In this document: positions 119-24,841 of the stretch, piece by piece
Layout of the letters: every line of letters begins with the position of its first letter
How positions within the stretch are numbered: the stretch's first letter is position 1
Virus record (IMG/VR): IMGVR_UViG_3300009037_000184
Location: 1 to 28,296 of that record
Source: a virus
Taxonomy: Duplodnaviria; Caudoviricetes
DNA: 28,296 nt
Strand: one strand, 5' to 3'
The notes under the pieces: generated by a model
The model's input: the letters and a program-made list of their open reading frames with translations, nothing else
The model's database searches: none
Told to the model about the DNA's origin: nothing
Made by a program: the position numbers and the translations under genes

Positions 119-334
119 AGCCACATCGCAAAAGAAACCCAAAGGGGCTAAGCGAGTCAAATCCCGAAAGAAACCCACAGATCGGAAGCGAGTCAATGCC
201 AGCAAGAAACCCAATGATAGGAAGCGAGTCACGCTGTGCAAGAAACCCAAAGTGGATAAGCGAGTCATTGCCAGCAAGAAACCCAATGACACCAAGCGAG
301 TCACGGTCCGGAAGAAACCCATTTTTCATAATCG
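119..334 (+). repeat. TIGR-like dual-repeat guide-RNA array 1 (6 x 36-nt units)
   Basis: Units start at 119, 155, 191, 227, 263 and 299 with pattern AG(T/C)CA-N9-AGAAACCCA-N9-AGCG (last unit ends ATCG). Spacer pairs: catcgcaaa/aaggggcta, aatcccgaa/cagatcgga, atgccagca/atgatagga, cgctgtgca/aagtggata, ttgccagca/atgacacca, cggtccgga/tttttcata. Confidence 0.9.
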
Positions 335-354
335 TATTGAAAGGAGAACAAACA

Positions 355-696
355 ATGGATAAAGGAGCGCCAAGCGTAACCCACCGAGTCAAAATGGGCT
401 GTGGCAACGTCTATCTGCGAGTGGTGATTGACGATAATGACAAGCCCAAGGCCGTGTTCATCACCATTGGAAAAGCCGGAGGTTGTCAGGCTGCCTTGGC
501 GTCGTCACTAGCCTCAGTAATTACACGGGCGCTCGAAAGCGATGTGTCGCTTAAGTTAATCATCAAGGCGCTCCGGGGAGTAACCTGTTTCGAGAGTCAA
601 CCAGGTGAACCGGAAACGCGATGCACCAGTTGTGTGGATGCGTTGGCAAAAATATTAGAACAGTACAACAACCCGTTCAAAGGAGAAAAGAAATGA
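355..696 (+). CDS. Stand-alone TSCPD-domain protein (like the class II ribonucleotide reductase C-terminal domain, NrdJb-like)
   Basis: Motifs GCGNVYL, VFITIGKAGG, LRGVTC and TSCVDALAKIL. RBS AAGGAG at 341-346 precedes ATG 355. The ORF-track start at 196 lies inside the array. Confidence 0.8.
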   Translation: MDKGAPSVTHRVKMGCGNVYLRVVIDDNDKPKAVFITIGKAGGCQAALASSLASVITRALESDVSLKLIIKALRGVTCFESQPGEPETRCTSCVDALAKILEQYNNPFKGEKK

Positions 697-1169
697 GCAT
701 TTCATGGGATGATTATTACATGGAGATTGTTCAGGCCGTCGCCCAAAAGTCCAAGGACCGTTCCGTGAAAATTGGAGCGGTGATCGTCGGACCCGACCAC
801 GAAATCCGGTCCACCGGATATAATGGCTTCCCGCGAAAGGTAAGTGACACTGACGAAAGCAGGCACCAGCGCCCGGAAAAATACAATTGGACCGAACACG
901 CGGAAAGAAATGCCATCTACAACGCCGCCCGCTGTGGAATACCCCTCAAGGGGTGCATTCTGTTCACCCAATGGCTCCCGTGTAACGATTGCGCCCGCGC
1001 AATTATTCAATCGGGGATCATTGGGGTTTGTTACAAGCCGCTTCTCAACATCCAGGATGGGAGCAGCTTGCTTAACAGAGACCATTACGACCGCTCCCGC
1101 GAAATGCTTAAAGAGGCTGGAGTGTTGGTAATCAACCTGAACAATCCGAAAGAGGAGGATTACGAATGA
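693..1169 (+). CDS. dCMP deaminase (ComEB/cytidine deaminase family)
   Basis: WDDYYM, S.D...KIGAVIV, TGYNG.P, the HAE.NAI and PC..C zinc motifs. ATGA overlap with the upstream stop; AGGAG at 681-685. Confidence 0.92.
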   Translation: MSISWDDYYMEIVQAVAQKSKDRSVKIGAVIVGPDHEIRSTGYNGFPRKVSDTDESRHQRPEKYNWTEHAERNAIYNAARCGIPLKGCILFTQWLPCNDCARAIIQSGIIGVCYKPLLNIQDGSSLLNRDHYDRSREMLKEAGVLVINLNNPKEEDYE

Positions 1170-1510
1170 ACGCGAGCGACCGTGAAGTTTTTTTCAGGGG
1201 GTTGTTTGACGAATGTTTGGCAATTGCCAAACGCAAGGGATCGGACTATAGCGAGAACAAACCTAACGCTGACGTGAACTCCAATTTCAAATTGGCGGCG
1301 GAGCGTTTGTCAACCGACGCAAGACCGATCACGAAGTACGACATCTGGTTTGTGTACTTCTATAAGCATCTCACCGCCATTGAAACTTTCATTGCAACCG
1401 GCAAACTGGAGAGTGAGGGGATCAGGGGGAGGATCATTGACGCCATCAACTACCTTGTAATTCTTGGCAGTATGGTAAAGGAGGACGAGCAAGCTAACCC
1501 ACAAAAGTAA
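1166..1510 (+). CDS. Nmad1/DUF1599-like all-alpha protein (nucleotide-modification-associated, NTP-pyrophosphatase-like)
   Basis: K..DY...D..SNF and E....RIIDAINYLVIL pattern. ATGA overlap and GAGGAGG RBS. Confidence 0.65.
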   Translation: MNASDREVFFRGLFDECLAIAKRKGSDYSENKPNADVNSNFKLAAERLSTDARPITKYDIWFVYFYKHLTAIETFIATGKLESEGIRGRIIDAINYLVILGSMVKEDEQANPQK

Positions 1511-1743
1511 CCCATCAGCCGCGAGCGAGTCACAGTCCAGAAGAAACCCATTATCAACAAGCGAGTCATGGGCGCTAAGAAACCCAGCCGCATGAAGCGA
1601 GTCAATGAAGGGAAGAAACCCATTTGCCCTAAGCGAGTCATGGGCAATAAGAAACCCAGGCGCATCAAGCGAGTTATCAACCGGAAGAAACCCACATGAT
1701 TTAAGCGAGTCACGGTTTGAAAGAAAACCAAAACAGGCAAACG
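1492..1743 (+). repeat. TIGR-like dual-repeat guide-RNA array 2 (7 x 36-nt units, terminal units degenerate)
   Basis: Units start at 1492, 1528, 1564, 1600, 1636, 1672 and 1708 with the same repeats as array 1. Spacer pairs: acccacaaa/tcagccgcg, cagtccaga/ttatcaaca, tgggcgcta/gccgcatga, atgaaggga/tttgcccta, tgggcaata/ggcgcatca, tcaaccgga/catgattta, cggtttgaa/aaacaggca. Confidence 0.9.
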
Positions 1744-1748
1744 AACCG

Positions 1749-2654
1749 ATGCAAATCAACATTATAAAATTCTACCGTGACCATCACATCCCTTATTTCG
1801 TCGAGGGGACGGAACACACTCGGCCAGGATGGGTCCAGACCCAATGCCCATACTGCTCGGGCAGAGTCGGGGACCACCTGGGGTTCAACCAGGCGTTCGG
1901 TTATTTTAACTGCTGGCGTTGCGGACCGCACCCGGTGATCTTCACTCTCTCACGCCAGACCGGAATGACCGCTTCCGCCGTCAGGTCCATCATTGGAAGT
2001 TACCAAACTCGAAGGCCGGTCAAACCAGTTAAAATTGAAGTCAGGCGTTATGCCTTTAAGTTCCCTTCGGGGACCGGCCAGATTGCCAAAGCCCACGAGA
2101 AATATCTGGTCAAAAGGAATTACAAACCGGCGGAAGTAGAGAGGGTATGGCAGGTAATGGGGACCGGGCCGGTAGCCGTCCTGGATGGAATTGATTACAA
2201 ATTTAGACTGGTGGTCCCGATCATCCTTGATAATAAAATCGTCAGTTTCCAAGCGAGAGACATTACAGGCAAAGCCAGACTGCGATATCTTGCCTGCCCC
2301 AAACAAAGGGAACTCTTGGACCACAAATTCACACTCTATGGATTGGATCAGTGCAATGACAACGAGCGAGTAGTAATTGTCGAGGGTATCTTTGACGCCT
2401 GGAGGATTGGACCGGGGGCGGTCGCAACCTTTGGGATTCAGTACACCAAGCAGCAAGTCCATAGGTTAGTAGATAGCTTTACCAAAGCTCTGGTGGTTTA
2501 TGATGATGAATTACAAGCTCAACGACAGGCCAGACAATTGCAAGGGATGCTGGAAATGTACGGGATTACAACGGATGTTGGCACTGCCCCCGGCGACCCC
2601 GACACTTTCAGTAAAAAGGACTTAGATGACATCAAAACGTGGATGGGAGGATAA
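1749..2654 (+). CDS. Phage DNA primase (zinc finger + TOPRIM)
   Basis: CPYC...CWRC zinc finger, VSFQAR, VEGIFDA and YDDE/GDPD TOPRIM motifs. Start placed at ATG 1749 after the array; the ORF-track start at 1605 lies within the array. Confidence 0.88.
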   Translation: MQINIIKFYRDHHIPYFVEGTEHTRPGWVQTQCPYCSGRVGDHLGFNQAFGYFNCWRCGPHPVIFTLSRQTGMTASAVRSIIGSYQTRRPVKPVKIEVRRYAFKFPSGTGQIAKAHEKYLVKRNYKPAEVERVWQVMGTGPVAVLDGIDYKFRLVVPIILDNKIVSFQARDITGKARLRYLACPKQRELLDHKFTLYGLDQCNDNERVVIVEGIFDAWRIGPGAVATFGIQYTKQQVHRLVDSFTKALVVYDDELQAQRQARQLQGMLEMYGITTDVGTAPGDPDTFSKKDLDDIKTWMGG

Positions 2655-4925: not shown

Positions 4926-5657
4926 TTAGTACCCACCATCAGCAATTTTGAGAACACGTTCGGTGATCGGTCCAACAATCCCATCGGGGACCAAACCATG
5001 CCCTCCTTGAAATTGAACCACAGCAGCCTTTGTTAAACTCCCGTAATCGCCATCAACCATCAATCCAGCATTCTGAATTTTGTTGAGCGCCGTTTGAATC
5101 CACTTTACCTTCGCTTCCTCCGCAAGATTTTCAGCCTCGCCGGTTTTATTGTTAATAGCATTAATACAAAACCGAGCCATCGCTTTGTACCCGCCTTTGG
5201 AGTAAGCTGCCTGCCCATCATCCCCCCGCCAATCATGGTGCCAACACTCGCTGCCTCTCGCGGCAATCCCAATCCAACCATGCTTTTTTAGAATGGCCTT
5301 AGTCCTAGCCAATCCAATTATCGTATTGCCAACGTCAATGTCAATTGCCCTGGCAGCCTCGTGCATTGACCCGCCTGGAGGCGGGGAGTACGCTGACTTC
5401 CGCCCGGTCTTCCAATCAAGGTAGGCGCGTCGTTGGGCCTCCGTACTCCGAAACATATCACTGATAAACAAAGTCCCGCCTGCTTGCGTTATCTCAATGA
5501 TTGCTTTGTCCAACGACTCCGCCGCCGGACGAACCAATTTAGCCATGTAGTCGGGGAGATAGTGCGTTGCCTTGTAAATATCAGGCACCTTAACGCAAAC
5601 GACCCCACTATATTTAGGGTCCGTCCCAACAATTCGACAGCGTTGTTCTTCAACCAT
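4926..5657 (-). CDS. Endolysin: peptidase M15-type catalytic domain + C-terminal peptidoglycan-binding domain
   Basis: FRS...Q, SMHEAARAIDI (SxHxxxxAxD) and ECWH motifs, plus C-terminal IQTALN..VDGDYG..T..AV..FQ...GL.PDGIVGP.T (PG_binding_1). Confidence 0.9.
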   Translation of the reverse strand: MVEEQRCRIVGTDPKYSGVVCVKVPDIYKATHYLPDYMAKLVRPAAESLDKAIIEITQAGGTLFISDMFRSTEAQRRAYLDWKTGRKSAYSPPPGGSMHEAARAIDIDVGNTIIGLARTKAILKKHGWIGIAARGSECWHHDWRGDDGQAAYSKGGYKAMARFCINAINNKTGEAENLAEEAKVKWIQTALNKIQNAGLMVDGDYGSLTKAAVVQFQGGHGLVPDGIVGPITERVLKIADGGY

Positions 5658-5702: not shown

Positions 5703-6236
5703 TCATCTTGGCCTCCTATGCTTTTTCGATTTGTGCCCGTGAATTTTTTTCCAACACGTCCAAATCCGGCCATTCCCCGCCTTCAGTTGGTTGATAGTCC
5801 ACCGGGTTGAAAAGTCCACGTCGCGGGCCTGGGCCTTCGTTACGGTCGGATGCGCGTCCAAGTTGATTTGATATAGCCCATAAGATGACTCCCGCCGGTT
5901 GTCATTAACGGCATTGGGATTGAGGGAAGATTCACAGCGGGCGAGGGCGATCAGCGTATCCGGCTTATTATATCCTTCCTCTTTGGCAATGGCCCGGATT
6001 TGATCCTTGATGGACAGATCATCCCGTGCGGGGTCGGGCGCGGGCGGAGGCGCGCATTGCTCTTCGAGGGTCTTGACCCGCTCGTGTAGAAATTCGATTT
6101 CGTTTTGTTGGGCGCGGTTGCTGGCCTCCAAGCCCTCGATCCGTTCGCGGGTGTCGTCCAGGCCCACCTGCTTGACCAGCGAGCACCCGCCCGCGACAAT
6201 CAGAAATCCGAAAAAAACCAATGAGAATTTTTTCAT
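5703..6236 (-). CDS. Lipoprotein with coiled coil, proline linker and SLT-like lytic transglycosylase domain
   Basis: Lipobox-like VAGGC after a hydrophobic stretch. Lysozyme-like motifs ARCESSLNPNAVN, SYGLYQI and WTC. Confidence 0.8.
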   Translation of the reverse strand: MKKFSLVFFGFLIVAGGCSLVKQVGLDDTRERIEGLEASNRAQQNEIEFLHERVKTLEEQCAPPPAPDPARDDLSIKDQIRAIAKEEGYNKPDTLIALARCESSLNPNAVNDNRRESSYGLYQINLDAHPTVTKAQARDVDFSTRWTINQLKAGNGRIWTCWKKIHGHKSKKHRRPR

Positions 6237-20118: not shown

Positions 20119-20462
20119 AACGCTTGCACCATAATATTCTTCGATGAGATGGACAATACTCCGCGAATGTCCAGTGTTTTTACTTGCTGACCGTACTGAG
20201 TAAAGTCCAACCCCATCCCAAACTTACCAGCATACTTCCGACTCGCGTCACCAAATGCGTCCCCCGTCAACTGACGCTGACGCATGGCAATAAAATGCGC
20301 CGCTAAATATCGCTCAATTTCAAAGAGAAGATCATCACTGTATCCAGAAGAAGCCAAAGTCTCATCCACCAACACCGTTGCTGTTGCAATGAAGGCGTCA
20401 ACGTCAAGAGAGCTGTCCACTTCAATGATCTTCTCCACGTCGTCTGATGTAACCCTAGCCAT
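20115..20462 (-). CDS. Head-tail adaptor (DUF4054-like)
   Basis: MARVT..DV, IERYLAAHF and GL..TQYGQQV..LD motifs. Confidence 0.8.
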   Translation of the reverse strand: MARVTSDDVEKIIEVDSSLDVDAFIATATVLVDETLASSGYSDDLLFEIERYLAAHFIAMRQRQLTGDAFGDASRKYAGKFGMGLDFTQYGQQVKTLDIRGVLSISSKNIMVQAL

Positions 20463-21166
20463 TATTCTTCCTCCTCATCAACACAGGGGACATCATCAAT
20501 CTTGTCCCTGCCTGACCACAGCGATGGAGTAACAAAATTATGGACTACTTCCCGGTTCCACTCCAACCCAAGGTGAGACACTACACGCTTTATCTCACCG
20601 TAGTTTCCTGCTATAATTTTGTTCGGCCATACTTCCACCAAATTCAAACCAGCATCTTTCATCTCCTGAAACCGCTTGAGGTGAACATTCACCCACTTCT
20701 GCCATCCGGCTTCATCATTATATGCTCGCATAAATCTGGTGCGAAGGCAAGAACTAATAATTCGAGCGGGATCACGCCGGACAATAATCCACTTGGCATT
20801 GGGGAAAGCATCAGCCCATTGCGTCCAAACCAAGCACATCTTCGCTCCCTTGTAAAACCAAGGACCGCCCCTATAACCCTGATTCCTGATGACGGTAAAG
20901 ACTTTCTGCCGCCAGAGAGGATCAATTTTCCACGTCGCCGGATTGGGTAGTGGTTTTTGCCCAAGCGGATCGAACCCGGCTTTTGATAATGACTTCTTTG
21001 TAAGCTCGTTACGAATTGCTTGGTTCTCAAACTGCCCTTTTTTGTTGTGGGGGGTCGGACCAGTCATAATCCCACCCCATGCGCCGCAGAAATGAACAAT
21101 CCCGCCAACGATACTGGTCCCAGATCGAGCGCATCCTGTAATCAAAATTGGTTCATGGTCTTCCAT
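20462..21166 (-). CDS. Sulfotransferase-family protein
   Basis: PILITGCARSGTS (5'-phosphosulfate-binding loop) and FPNAKWIIVRRDP..IISS (3'-phosphate-binding motif). Confidence 0.8.
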   Translation of the reverse strand: MEDHEPILITGCARSGTSIVGGIVHFCGAWGGIMTGPTPHNKKGQFENQAIRNELTKKSLSKAGFDPLGQKPLPNPATWKIDPLWRQKVFTVIRNQGYRGGPWFYKGAKMCLVWTQWADAFPNAKWIIVRRDPARIISSCLRTRFMRAYNDEAGWQKWVNVHLKRFQEMKDAGLNLVEVWPNKIIAGNYGEIKRVVSHLGLEWNREVVHNFVTPSLWSGRDKIDDVPCVDEEEE

Positions 21167-21893
21167 CCCAATTACTCCTTACCCACGGGATACCCGTAAT
21201 CTGATGAGGACGCGGATTTCCATGACAAGAAACAATCCGAGCATCCTCTGGTAACTGGTTGCCTCTGGACCGAACGTGTCGTTTGTAACTCACAACCTGT
21301 CGAGGACAAACTTTGTCCCACCTATCACCGCCTCGTTCTCCGACAACGTACCGAAACCAATACCGCTCACGTCCACCAGTCAACCGCTCAACGCGACTCG
21401 GTTGCTCGGCAAGGGGCTTCCAAAACCGATCACAATTCTCAGCGCCAGCGCGGAATGAAGTCACGTCACCGTCCAGCTTGTATTGTTCACCGGGCTTGAA
21501 CTTGGACCGGGCGCAGAACTCGCCGGAATAAGAGACAATATCCGCCAGACAATCAACAATAACAATGTCCAAGTCCAGCGCCAAAACCTGCCGCCCGAAC
21601 AACCCGCTCTCCTCCGAGAACATCCACATGCGGGGGAGAACGCCTCGCGGGCAAGGGGCCTCAAATTTACGGACAACAATTCCTGGATTGAGGCCATCCA
21701 ACTCCTCATTGGTAAAACAAATAAATTCAAACTTGTCCCTCATCAATAGCAAATGGCTCAGAACACCCCGATAGAGCGCATTGATATATTGAGCGCCAAG
21801 CCCATCATTTGCCCACCTGTCACCCAACCAATAAAAGCAAACAACCGACAGCGGGACTTCCAATTTCGGAATACTAAGATCACGACGTTCCAT
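21153..21893 (-). CDS. Glycosyltransferase (GT-A fold)
   Basis: SVVCFYW, FICFTN, LALDLDIVI (DxD) and IVSCHGNPRPH. ATG overlaps the upstream TAA. Confidence 0.8.
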   Translation of the reverse strand: MERRDLSIPKLEVPLSVVCFYWLGDRWANDGLGAQYINALYRGVLSHLLLMRDKFEFICFTNEELDGLNPGIVVRKFEAPCPRGVLPRMWMFSEESGLFGRQVLALDLDIVIVDCLADIVSYSGEFCARSKFKPGEQYKLDGDVTSFRAGAENCDRFWKPLAEQPSRVERLTGGRERYWFRYVVGERGGDRWDKVCPRQVVSYKRHVRSRGNQLPEDARIVSCHGNPRPHQITGIPWVRSNWDGRP

Positions 21894-22570
21894 TAGCTCA
21901 CCAATCCTTTCACCCAAGCCTGCGACAACGCCCGATTATAAAGCGGCTTGGGATGTCCAAAGATTATTTTTACTCCTGGAGGCGGGCCGCTATTCCAGCA
22001 GTGCTTAAGTTTTATAAACCATCCTTTAGGAAAAGTAGCGCCGACGTTCAAAAAAAAGTCACCGAAAAAATCCTGGTCCCCCCGATACTTCTGCCGTAAA
22101 TCAGCTTGGACCAGCGGTTCCTGAATATCAGGTGGAAGCAGAATATTACCAGCAGTAAACCCAATTACTGAACTTTGAAATCGAGTCACCACTCCAGCTT
22201 TAATTTTCGGGTCGTTGGATGGAGTCCCAAGCGGAGGCGCAAATAAAATGGACTTGGCATTAGCGCGTTGAAATGAAACCAAGCTATCCAACTCCCCGCA
22301 AATAAACGTGTCCAAATCCAAATAGAGGACCGGTCCCGTCAATGGCAGTCCCATAAACAATTCCAATTTTGCCCACCAACCAACCAGTGAGTTAGCAAAT
22401 CGTAACGGTATCTGACGGTAGGGCGCATCTGCTTTAATATCATTTGTTAAGCAAACAAATTCAAATGGGGTTGATAACCACCGATGGCACATGCGGCAAA
22501 GGCGAGCCACATGATCGTGGGTGTAATCACGATTACGGAAATCCCCCCGCCACAAGACGCATGTAATCAT
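21893..22570 (-). CDS. Glycosyltransferase (GT-A fold)
   Basis: MITCVLW, FVCLTND, GWWAKLELF, LYLDLD, FQSSV and GDQDF. TAATG overlap at the start. Confidence 0.85.
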   Translation of the reverse strand: MITCVLWRGDFRNRDYTHDHVARLCRMCHRWLSTPFEFVCLTNDIKADAPYRQIPLRFANSLVGWWAKLELFMGLPLTGPVLYLDLDTFICGELDSLVSFQRANAKSILFAPPLGTPSNDPKIKAGVVTRFQSSVIGFTAGNILLPPDIQEPLVQADLRQKYRGDQDFFGDFFLNVGATFPKGWFIKLKHCWNSGPPPGVKIIFGHPKPLYNRALSQAWVKGLVS

Positions 22571-23316
22571 TAGCATCGAACCTGCCCTTTCCAGATACGG
22601 TCGGCGTAAGTGTAACCCATCTCCTCTAAAAGATGGTTCTTCACTGGATGACATGCGATCATTCGTTTGTGAGTAATATCAATTGGGTCAGGTCCGCGAT
22701 CCTGCTTACAAAGTTTACGCGCCCAATTGCGAGGAAACTTCGGACGATCTTTCCCAAGACAAACCGCCATCCAATCTTGGTCCCCGCAATACCGGTCAAT
22801 GTGGACTGCTGGATTGAAGTCGGTATAAATACAATCACACTCTCCCTTATCGTACACAATAGCATCAGAACTGTAAATCGGAATTAATTCCTGGTGACGT
22901 GTTTTTTGCACTCGATGAATTGCCTGTTTTGTTGAAAAGAATTTGGAGTAGGACCAGTAATCCGCCAATGCAACAGGCGCGTCAAAATCAATAATGCTGT
23001 TCATGTCCCCCACAATCAGCATGTCAATATCTAATGCTAAAACACGTTTCTCCAAATCCACTCCAGGGCGGAAGCACTCGATCTTTGACCACCATGCCGG
23101 CCAATCCTTCTCCAACGGAATGACTCGAATGTCATTGCGAAACTGCTTCGCCGGAACATTACTGAAACAAACAAAATCAAGTTCCTTTGTTGAATGCAAT
23201 GATAGCATGTCCTTCAACCGACTAATGTAGATTGGAGAATAGTAACGAACGTGGTTAGTCCCAATCCGTGACCAAGAACCAACCCATAAAGCGCAAGTGA
23301 CGCTAATCCTGGTCAA
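22570..23316 (-). CDS. Glycosyltransferase (GT-A fold)
   Basis: VTCALW, FVCFSN, WWSKIECF, LALDIDM and GDQDW. TTG start 6 nt after GGAGGAGG. Confidence 0.82.
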   Translation of the reverse strand: MTRISVTCALWVGSWSRIGTNHVRYYSPIYISRLKDMLSLHSTKELDFVCFSNVPAKQFRNDIRVIPLEKDWPAWWSKIECFRPGVDLEKRVLALDIDMLIVGDMNSIIDFDAPVALADYWSYSKFFSTKQAIHRVQKTRHQELIPIYSSDAIVYDKGECDCIYTDFNPAVHIDRYCGDQDWMAVCLGKDRPKFPRNWARKLCKQDRGPDPIDITHKRMIACHPVKNHLLEEMGYTYADRIWKGQVRC

Positions 23317-24841
23317 CGACAACCTCCTCCACCTGACTGCCAACCTGGTCTTTTTTCCAAGTCATCCAAACAGCGTCGGGATGGAATATAGTTACCTTCA
23401 CCAAGCATTCATTATACGCTTTACGAACACCGTCCCAATTAGCATCATGCCCTAAAATCATCCCTTCCGGCTTTACTTTGGGGAGATACGCTTTGATATC
23501 AGACGAACACGCTTCGTAGGAATGATCGGCGTCAATGAAAACAAAATCGAGGGATTCGTCCTCAATATCGTTTGCGCCATCCAACGATAATTTGTTGATG
23601 AGCGTAACGCGACCACCACTATTACGATTCAATTTGTGCCTAAATTTTGGCTCCATCTTGGAGAAACCCCCCGGCCATTTATCCACAGCAATCATCTGTA
23701 ACCCCGGATTATCATGTATGAGAGCAAACGTTGTTTTACCTTGCGCCACACCAACCTCCGCGCCAATGGTCCACTGATACTGTCTAATTAATTGATTCAA
23801 CAAATCAACCCTTGTAAGCTGGTTGCCTAGTGGAACAACCGTAAACGGACCATACTTTTCCCAAATGGAGCAACGGGCGTCCCGTTTTGACGTAAGAGGA
23901 ATATTGATATTATGAACGTATAATTGCATATAAACTTGACGTTCCTCATCAGCCCACGACACTCCCCGAATAAGGTCGCCATTGGCATCCAAAACCATAA
24001 ATTTGTCACCTTTCGTAACGTCCCAAATTTTCTTACTCATCTTTTCTCTCCTTCTTGACTTTTTGGCCTCAACAACTTCCACAGGGTGGTTGCGTTGGTT
24101 TATTGGCGTGATTGTCAACGAATCCGACTGCGGAGGCATCTTTTTTTTGTTTTGAATAATCTGAACAAACTCATCAAATGAAATTCGTGGAAAGTCCAAA
24201 ATAGCACTATCGGGGTTAACGTTGATAATTGTGTAACCCAACGACCGAGCAGCTTTGGCAATCTCATGGGTCGTCCTGATAAGACGCTCATAAAACTTTT
24301 GCTTGGTATCGCTGTTGGTAAACTTCCTAACTTCCTTATACCCTTCATGCCAATGAGTCGCCCCATCAGCGCCAGAGCAAGCATCAAACCCAAAAAGAAA
24401 CGCCCTGCCCTCCGGGCCGGTAAGGTGATACGCCAAATTTATGGCCGACCCCCCGGAGTTACCATTCCACCGCACCGTCTTTGGGTCGGTTGAAAGCCCC
24501 ATGTCCTTCCGCCCACGTTGACGGTCAACATATTTAATGGCTTTATCAGTCGCAGCATGAGAACAACAACAAGCTCGGAGACCCGTAAACGAATAAAGCC
24601 CCCGATCTTTCATCGTTCGATAGAGCGCATAAAAGGGCGAATCGCCAAACCACAAAACGTGCATCCAGTCATTTGAATCAGGGATGTCCTTGTATGCTTT
24701 ATTAACCCCAATAACCTTGATTTTTTCGCTTAGCGAAAACTCACGAAGAACACCCCAATCGGCTTGCTTAAAGGATGGCCCGCCGCCGATGATAATTACA
24801 TCAGCAGCGGGCCACATCTTTGGAACTTTCCAAGTACCCAT
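23303..24841 (-). CDS. Fusion: N-terminal DUF115/MptE-like (GT29-like Rossmann) domain + C-terminal class I SAM methyltransferase (Methyltransf_24-like)
   Basis: N-terminal IIGGGPS, VIGVN, NSGGSAINLA and LFGFD.....HW. C-terminal GAEVGV..G, LDFVFIDADHSYE and GMILGHD. Confidence 0.78.
   Translation of the reverse strand: MGTWKVPKMWPAADVIIIGGGPSFKQADWGVLREFSLSEKIKVIGVNKAYKDIPDSNDWMHVLWFGDSPFYALYRTMKDRGLYSFTGLRACCCSHAATDKAIKYVDRQRGRKDMGLSTDPKTVRWNGNSGGSAINLAYHLTGPEGRAFLFGFDACSGADGATHWHEGYKEVRKFTNSDTKQKFYERLIRTTHEIAKAARSLGYTIINVNPDSAILDFPRISFDEFVQIIQNKKKMPPQSDSLTITPINQRNHPVEVVEAKKSRRREKMSKKIWDVTKGDKFMVLDANGDLIRGVSWADEERQVYMQLYVHNINIPLTSKRDARCSIWEKYGPFTVVPLGNQLTRVDLLNQLIRQYQWTIGAEVGVAQGKTTFALIHDNPGLQMIAVDKWPGGFSKMEPKFRHKLNRNSGGRVTLINKLSLDGANDIEDESLDFVFIDADHSYEACSSDIKAYLPKVKPEGMILGHDANWDGVRKAYNECLVKVTIFHPDAVWMTWKKDQVGSQVEEVVVDQD

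Follow-up and report, generated by a model that had tools for sequence, protein, structure and literature searches.

Positions 119-1743 of the window, the 28,296-nt virus contig IMGVR_UViG_3300009037_000184 analysed here as a whole, form part of a phage dual-repeat TIGR locus of the SpTIGR type with a cut-off gene of the TasH clade. The encoded protein likely cuts contiguous 16-bp DNA sites without a fixed central dinucleotide, a reading to which we assign a probability of about 0.9. The architecture for which the locus had been singled out, an almost invariant A before each repeat, is real but already in print; it therefore matters little by itself, and the locus adds a member to the SpTIGR-TasH kind. 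The wider value lies in a candidate target and in a covariation of ninth spacer bases.

Layout of the locus and published counterparts

Two arrays of 36-nt units, the second beginning at about position 1492, are separated by three genes (Table 1). Both arrays consist of two alternating repeats within the 8-12-nt range of TIGR arrays and of short spacers, at a 36-nt period. When array 1 is divided into 10-nt repeats and 8-nt spacers (10+8 register), its loop repeat is AAGAAACCCA and its edge repeat AAGCGAGTCA. The box C motif and the box D motif are present in both repeats, together with an extra pair in the edge repeat, and the repeats end in CCA or TCA. Across 140 loci, edge-repeat positions 3 and 6 read C-G 1,288 times and T-A 226 times, and positions 2 and 7 read G-C (821), G-T (538), A-T (194) or A-C (63). 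The stretch is not an assembly artefact: contigs of another study agree with it at 99% or more and differ from it in no letter. Both arrays are covered by assembled RNA contigs, but so are scattered virion genes, and the contigs are for that reason not evidence of array expression. No promoter-like site was found on the plus strand, folds of the tigRNAs did not differ from those of shuffled sequences, and blastn returned no array matches in GenBank phages. In the stretch 1166-1527, array 2 begins with degenerate units that lie within the 3' end of the preceding gene. Immediately after array 1 come a ribosome-binding-like stretch and then the next gene.

Table 1. Features of the TIGR locus and of the genes around it
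Feature	Positions	Strand	Evidence or remarks
tas gene, 3' end (last 35 codons and stop), cut by contig end	1-108	+	Translation; Tas HMM, E = 1.6e-11
TIGR array 1	119-334	+	Six 36-nt units; degenerate edges on first and last
Array 1 units	119-154, 155-190, 191-226, 227-262, 263-298, 299-334	+	Putative borders, after synthetic SpTasH tigRNAs
TSCPD-domain gene, between arrays	355-696	+	PF12637, E = 9.9e-16
dCMP deaminase gene, between arrays	693-1169	+	PF00383, E = 9.4e-23; phrog_174
Gene without assigned function, 3' end overlapping degenerate start of array 2	1166-1510	+	phrog_6802, E = 3.2e-10
TIGR array 2	1492-1743	+	One degenerate unit (G at 1523) and six units at 1528-1743
Guide unit; halves joined without gap read as codons W-A-L-M-R in an HNH endonuclease gene from a phage (L356, G021)	1564-1599	+	Exact match
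Variant guide unit; the corresponding codons, here W-A-M-M-R, in a homologous HNH gene (L474, G022)	1636-1671	+	Exact match
DNA primase gene, directly 3' of array 2	1749-2654	+	phrog_47, E = 7.1e-29

The adjacent tas gene with a Nop domain that marks TIGR-Tas systems is represented by its C-terminal 35 residues, the remainder lying off the contig; the HMM that detected it is a profile of Tas proteins from related loci. These residues are identical to SpTasH 276-309 at 20 of 35 positions, and for L037, a relative of full length, the match to the solved TasH chains has E = 4.6e-76. A quick tree of 39 Tas proteins groups the 10 HNH-bearing rows, among them SpTasH, as a single clade (SH-aLRT 100). 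Judged from its 35 residues, the protein most likely belongs to the TasH clade, with an N-terminal HNH domain that would lie off the contig and that the fragment's nearest relatives carry. One contig of run X2 extends 114 bases further upstream than base 1, and the nearest complete homologues include L195 and L164. It is improbable that the cognate Tas uses 8+8-nt guides but, being nuclease-less or inactive, binds and represses its targets rather than cutting them. The N-terminus falls outside the contig, arrays with a fixed purine are seen next to non-HNH Tas proteins as well, and nuclease-less Tas proteins repress transcription according to the available part of bioRxiv 2026.09.09.750476; against this, the top matches of the fragment all belong to the TasH clade, the HNH motif pattern is present in 22 of the top 25, and the first non-HNH Tas stands at rank 148 of 179 blastp rows, with none among the first 147.

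The locus is a phage TIGR system, since it lies in a virus record with primase, lysis and virion genes; what remains of the contig is occupied for the most part by minus-strand genes for phage lysis and the virion. A strong hairpin at 2717-2761 (11-nt perfect arms, z -2.5) is located where primase and minus-strand genes run towards each other, and contigs of two runs branch near 2660-2700. Adjoining cell-wall enzymes, one with a transglycosylase domain and the other a peptidase that has a peptidoglycan-binding domain, are encoded at 5706-6236 and 4929-5657, and sulfotransferase, methyltransferase and likely glycosyltransferase-type genes cluster among head and tail genes at 20462-24841.

The SpTIGR-SpTasH system of Salicola phage CGphi29 (PMC12045711, PMC13421893, PDB 9W02-9W04) likewise has 36-nt units and 8-nt spacers. 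Its repeats, given as AAGACAACCA and AAGCGAG(C/T)CA in the accessible parts of PMC12045711 (Tables S1/S3), share with the present locus the edge repeat AAGCGAG(C/T)CA and an AAG-type loop repeat ending in CCA, and A precedes 14 of 16 repeats in the phage genome (NC_020844). The Tas C-termini are homologous (57% over 35 aa), with a Tyr aligned to Y289. The present locus differs from SpTIGR in its loop repeat (AAGAAACCCA rather than AAGACAACCA), in its spacers, and in having two arrays downstream of tas with three genes in between; its Tas differs from SpTasH in a His placed two residues past the H296 position and in an N-terminus that is outside the contig. In the available text of PMC12045711, TIGR repeats measure 8-12 nt and the total spacer of SpTIGR is 16 nt; in that of bioRxiv 10.64898/2026.08.11.744272, the SpTasH heteroduplex falls one bp short of nine and spacer A is 8 nt long. 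The original prediction had offered a division into 10-nt repeats and 8-nt spacers, and with it a subfamily using 8+8-nt guides. Both were right, and both describe the published SpTIGR/SpTasH type, because SpTIGR has the same AAG-type 10-nt repeats, a 16-nt total spacer and 8-bp SpTasH heteroduplexes; the AAG-type repeat with 8-nt spacers is accordingly not new when set beside the published TIGR repeats accessible to us.

More distant TIGR systems share parts of this pattern. TaTIGR and ParTIGR with TasR have nearly identical repeat cores (TGAAACCCA, TGCGAGCCA), a CCA box C and the 36-nt period, but a TG start, 9-nt spacers, an 18-bp target and a RuvC nuclease, as far as the accessible portion of PMC12045711 goes. 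FpTIGR with FpTasA has repeats that also begin with AG but is described in the same portion as 9+9, with a variable ninth base and a nuclease-less protein. The statement in the original prediction that characterised TIGR repeats begin with UG holds for TasR arrays, for which that source describes it, and fails for SpTIGR and FpTIGR, which begin with AG as the repeats here do; the UG start is not family-defining, since the published motifs are said to diverge.

The constant A and position 9 in relatives

The base 5' of a recognisable repeat is A in 25 of 26 cases when degenerate end units are included (132-330, 1505-1739), the G of the degenerate unit being the sole exception; the recount agrees with the numbers that had been claimed for nine-nt spacers. 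The A is found in 23 of 24 chained spacers and in 21 of 22 strictly internal ones. Given an A frequency of 23% at spacer positions 1-8, its constancy among the chained spacers has P = 3.6e-14. The repeats begin with AG in the 9+9 register, as claimed, and read AAGAAACCCA and AAGCGAGTCA in the 10+8 register; the sequence alone is compatible with both.

Relatives were collected in two ways. A pattern scan in which the spacer was left free returned 66 loci, and the 45 non-redundant ones used for the position-9 count (1,360 spacers) carry A at 49.9%, G at 29.6%, T at 16.3% and C at 4.3%, with strong heterogeneity among loci and A throughout in 6 of the 45. Following protein-first scans there were 237 loci, 140 of which were kept as non-redundant and provided with an array. 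Position 9 is A in 85.2% of the 1,739 spacers from 90 non-redundant TasH-clade loci; 63 of these loci have at least 85% A and 4 have a G majority, counts that are descriptive and not independent events, the clade being a single lineage. Non-HNH loci (n = 41) have A at 44.5%, and 2 of the 41 reach 85%. Within the TasH clade, position 9 agrees with the locus consensus at 0.89, compared with 0.77-1.00 for repeat bases and 0.43-0.44 for position 8, and departures from the consensus accompany degenerate neighbouring repeats (odds ratio 1.7). The constant A behaves as a repeat base.

A fixed A is not exclusive to TasH. Among 131 loci not classed as TasH, a set that includes 35 without a classifiable tas, 71 are purine-fixed (at most 10% pyrimidine), with a majority of G in 51 and of A in 20; pooled, the purine-fixed non-TasH loci lean toward a 16-bp join (z 2.3). 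The original prediction named free variation of position 9 in homologous arrays as evidence that would refute it, and such variation is seen in part: the position is conserved within the TasH clade, and it is G-rich or variable in other relatives that have the same repeats. The clade-level pattern may already appear in the supplementary repeat logos of PMC12045711 (figs S4, S5, S8). Arrays with the same repeats and G replacing A at position 9 (L031, L021, L060, L005, L046, L219, L084 and about 45 more) occur inside and outside the TasH clade. One locus beside a Tas-like gene (L142, G011) has spacers that are nearly all alike, as variants of one 9-mer, and phage contigs G002 (L014/L026) and G003 (L025/L061) carry a second long array 15-20 kb from tas with no tas nearby.

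Target length

By analogy with SpTasH, the arrays would be transcribed and cut inside each edge repeat into 36-nt tigRNAs, the cut being made by the C-terminal Tyr/His pair, of which the Tyr aligns here and the His is displaced. In a Tas dimer, spacers A and B would pair over 8 nt each with opposite strands of a 16-bp site, which two HNH domains would cut. The A would belong to the repeat that the protein binds, and likely does not pair with target DNA. The targets are probably other phages. Published work on SpTasH fits a contiguous site of this length: the accessible part of bioRxiv 10.64898/2026.08.11.744272 lists mismatch substrates MM1-MM16, and the first flanking duplex pair is numbered 17 in PMC13421893, which we read as denoting a contiguous 16-bp site.

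The length of natural sites was addressed with a junction and codon-phase test, in which the two 8-nt halves of each unit were joined at gap 0, 1 or 2 and scored for fit to phage coding DNA under a three-periodic Markov model whose training set was 1,285 array-masked ORFs; spacers permuted within loci served as the control. The set comprised 831 units from 91 TasH-clade loci, including the present locus and SpTIGR. Joins at gap 0 scored z 5.1, at gap 1 z -1.0 and at gap 2 z 0.3, in a test that had no separate replication set, later scans having added one new TasH locus; 62 of the 91 loci exceeded their own background at gap 0. The gap-0 signal persisted at Markov orders 2-4, after removal of near-duplicates, in the viral half (z 2.7) and the metagenome half (z 4.5) of the set, and among the 635 units whose two ninth bases are both A (z 4.2). 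Frame-equivalent joins also scored (gap 3, z 3.8; mirror geometry at gap 2, z 3.6), and unrelated join geometries gave no signal. The pattern of SpTasH, 8-nt spacers and a contiguous 16-bp target, is therefore found at the level of the clade, through the repeat-like position 9 and the gap-0 signal, and the phase result gives genomic evidence for natural TasH sites being uninterrupted 16-mers taken from coding DNA. Anyone engineering guides of the SpTasH type should retain the A as part of the scaffold and not treat it as something that the target must provide.

Four of the 11 complete guides of the locus were also scanned against viral contigs. Matches at gap 0/1/2 numbered at least 84/at least 19/at least 17, 56/15/17, 39/20/13 and 9/26/7. 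Gap 0 was the largest class for three of the four guides, and guide 191-226 ran against the trend with 26 gap-1 matches versus 9 at gap 0. Most of these are chance matches shaped by codon usage. No self-target was found as an exact match in four geometries at gaps 0-6 when 22 contigs or genomes were searched with their own guides, and at one mismatch the counts in the same 22 equalled those of control geometries. A cross-locus search with 678 guides against 513 kb gave no exact match in the published geometry at gaps 0-3. Near-identical guide pairs (14 TasH and 23 non-HNH groups) displayed no within-half periodicity in the codon-phase test.

The bridge RNA of IS110 elements has a core dinucleotide. 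The original prediction had proposed, as its second branch, that the A is a ninth spacer base which pairs with the target, giving 18-bp sites with a fixed central AT reminiscent of the IS110 core. Three points favour this proposal: the array letters permit either register, TaTasR and PlTasA pair nine bases per spacer in the published text available, and the present locus taken alone is compatible with gap 2, its mean at gap 2 being as far above background as its mean at gap 0, although 11 units are too few. The evidence against it is broader. SpTasH, whose repeats are of the type seen here, pairs 8 bases in the accessible part of its description; 9+9 joins made with the real ninth bases give no excess in the phase test (z 1.0 for the 831 units, z 0.5 for the 635 with A at both ninth positions); AT is central in 4 of the 54 gap-2 matches listed for the four guides, close to the 1 in 16 expected by chance; and the HNH-gene matches described below are contiguous. 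Neither the SpTasH structures nor the phase tests nor the guide scans lend support to a fixed central dinucleotide, and we regard 18-bp AT-centred sites as largely refuted and very improbable. A point against contiguous sites is that TaTasR tolerates gaps of 1-2 bp in vitro, according to the available part of PMC12045711. With IS110 the locus shares a related Nop-type RNA-binding domain (a weak PF02371 match in relatives); it differs in having no recombinase and, in our tests, no fixed central dinucleotide. An AT-centred reading of guide 263-298 as 'DTMLA', which we take to be a DNA-polymerase-like motif, was rejected, as AT occurs in 2 of its 13 gap-2 matches and no family cluster was seen. 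Decayed arrays whose constant A reflects recent duplication of one unit are a negligible alternative, despite the degenerate end units and two pairs of near-identical units, since positions 1-8 vary freely while position 9 does not and 63 of 90 clade loci have the same pattern with unrelated spacers.

Candidate targets and the ninth base in nuclease-less relatives

Natural targets are called open in the published papers, and HNH endonuclease genes provide a testable candidate. Guides 1564-1599 and 1636-1671 differ at 4 of 16 bases and match the same codons of two HNH genes (Table 1) that are 62% identical and fall in PHROG 3377 and 374. The two gap-0 peptide readings, with mostly third-position changes between them, had been noted before the scan; the HNH family was picked after the match and not beforehand. 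Of all forms of the motif among the 120 nearest homologues listed, the two that were matched rank first (22 cases) and second (4 cases) in frequency. Four random changes yield the commonest form with a probability of 8.8e-5 and any observed form with 0.0037; after multiplication by the 69 distinct gap-0 matches able to supply a family, the chance is about 0.006 to 0.26. The HNH gene is one of at least 84 gap-0 matches for guide 1564-1599 and one of 56 for guide 1636-1671. The other guides of the locus have no match to G021 or G022 with fewer than three mismatches; HNH-family peptides are not enriched among all TasH guides (20 observed, 13-28 shuffled), and no proteins common to G021/G022 and the 28,296-nt window were detectable. 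Our literature search found no link between TIGR and homing endonucleases. With one match per guide, we lean slightly toward the view that this guide pair targets alleles of HNH endonuclease genes in other phages.

A second near-identical guide pair, 191-226 and 263-298, also differs at 4 of 16 bases, and the viral-contig scan returned no shared target family for it. An abundant phage gene family without a Pfam or PHROG match (L440 24-614 and 23 related matches) contains a conserved motif that guide 1636-1671 matches exactly at gap 0. This cluster of 24 gap-0 matches was rejected as the target because it is not common to the sister guide; it represents either a chance match or a second target.

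In nuclease-less relatives with a variable position 9, the ninth base of spacer A complements that of spacer B in 42.6% of 679 units, compared with a permutation expectation of 29.1% (z 9.3; 36 of 45 loci). The hypothesis of complementarity was noted before the new scans, and loci from those scans replicated it (z 4.5 in 14 loci, z 3.0 in 5 loci). Nothing comparable was seen between spacers A and B at positions 1-8 in the same locus sets (at most z 2.2), and TasH loci have no ninth-base complementarity (z 0.2). The complementarity would follow from a 17-bp site in which both ninth bases share one central pair; RNA-internal pairing or an acquisition footprint may account for it instead. In the phase test, non-HNH loci scored z 3.0 at gap 1 in the discovery set and z 3.1 when pooled, but replication failed, with z 1.0 at gap 1 for all 55 loci and z 0.8 for the 14 variable loci, where gap 2 scored z 2.2; the loci were sorted as fixed or variable once the first replication run had been done. 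The accessible text of PMC12045711 reports no obvious covariation between spacers, the available part of bioRxiv 2026.09.09.750476 makes no mention of ninth-base covariation, and literature searches found none, although supplements and the Mol Cell SpTasH structure paper may cover it.

These results can be tentatively combined, in a form that we consider unlikely to hold in full. Position 9 would set target length in the AG-repeat family, a fixed purine going with a 16-bp site and many nuclease-less relatives using a 17-bp site in which both ninth bases read one shared central pair, as an acquisition footprint; the TasH of the present phage would cut the HNH homing-endonuclease genes of rival phages, with separate guides for the two commonest alleles. 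The ninth-base complementarity bears on guide acquisition, which published papers call open. The 45 non-TasH loci concerned include L020, L053, L001, L526, L713 and L535.
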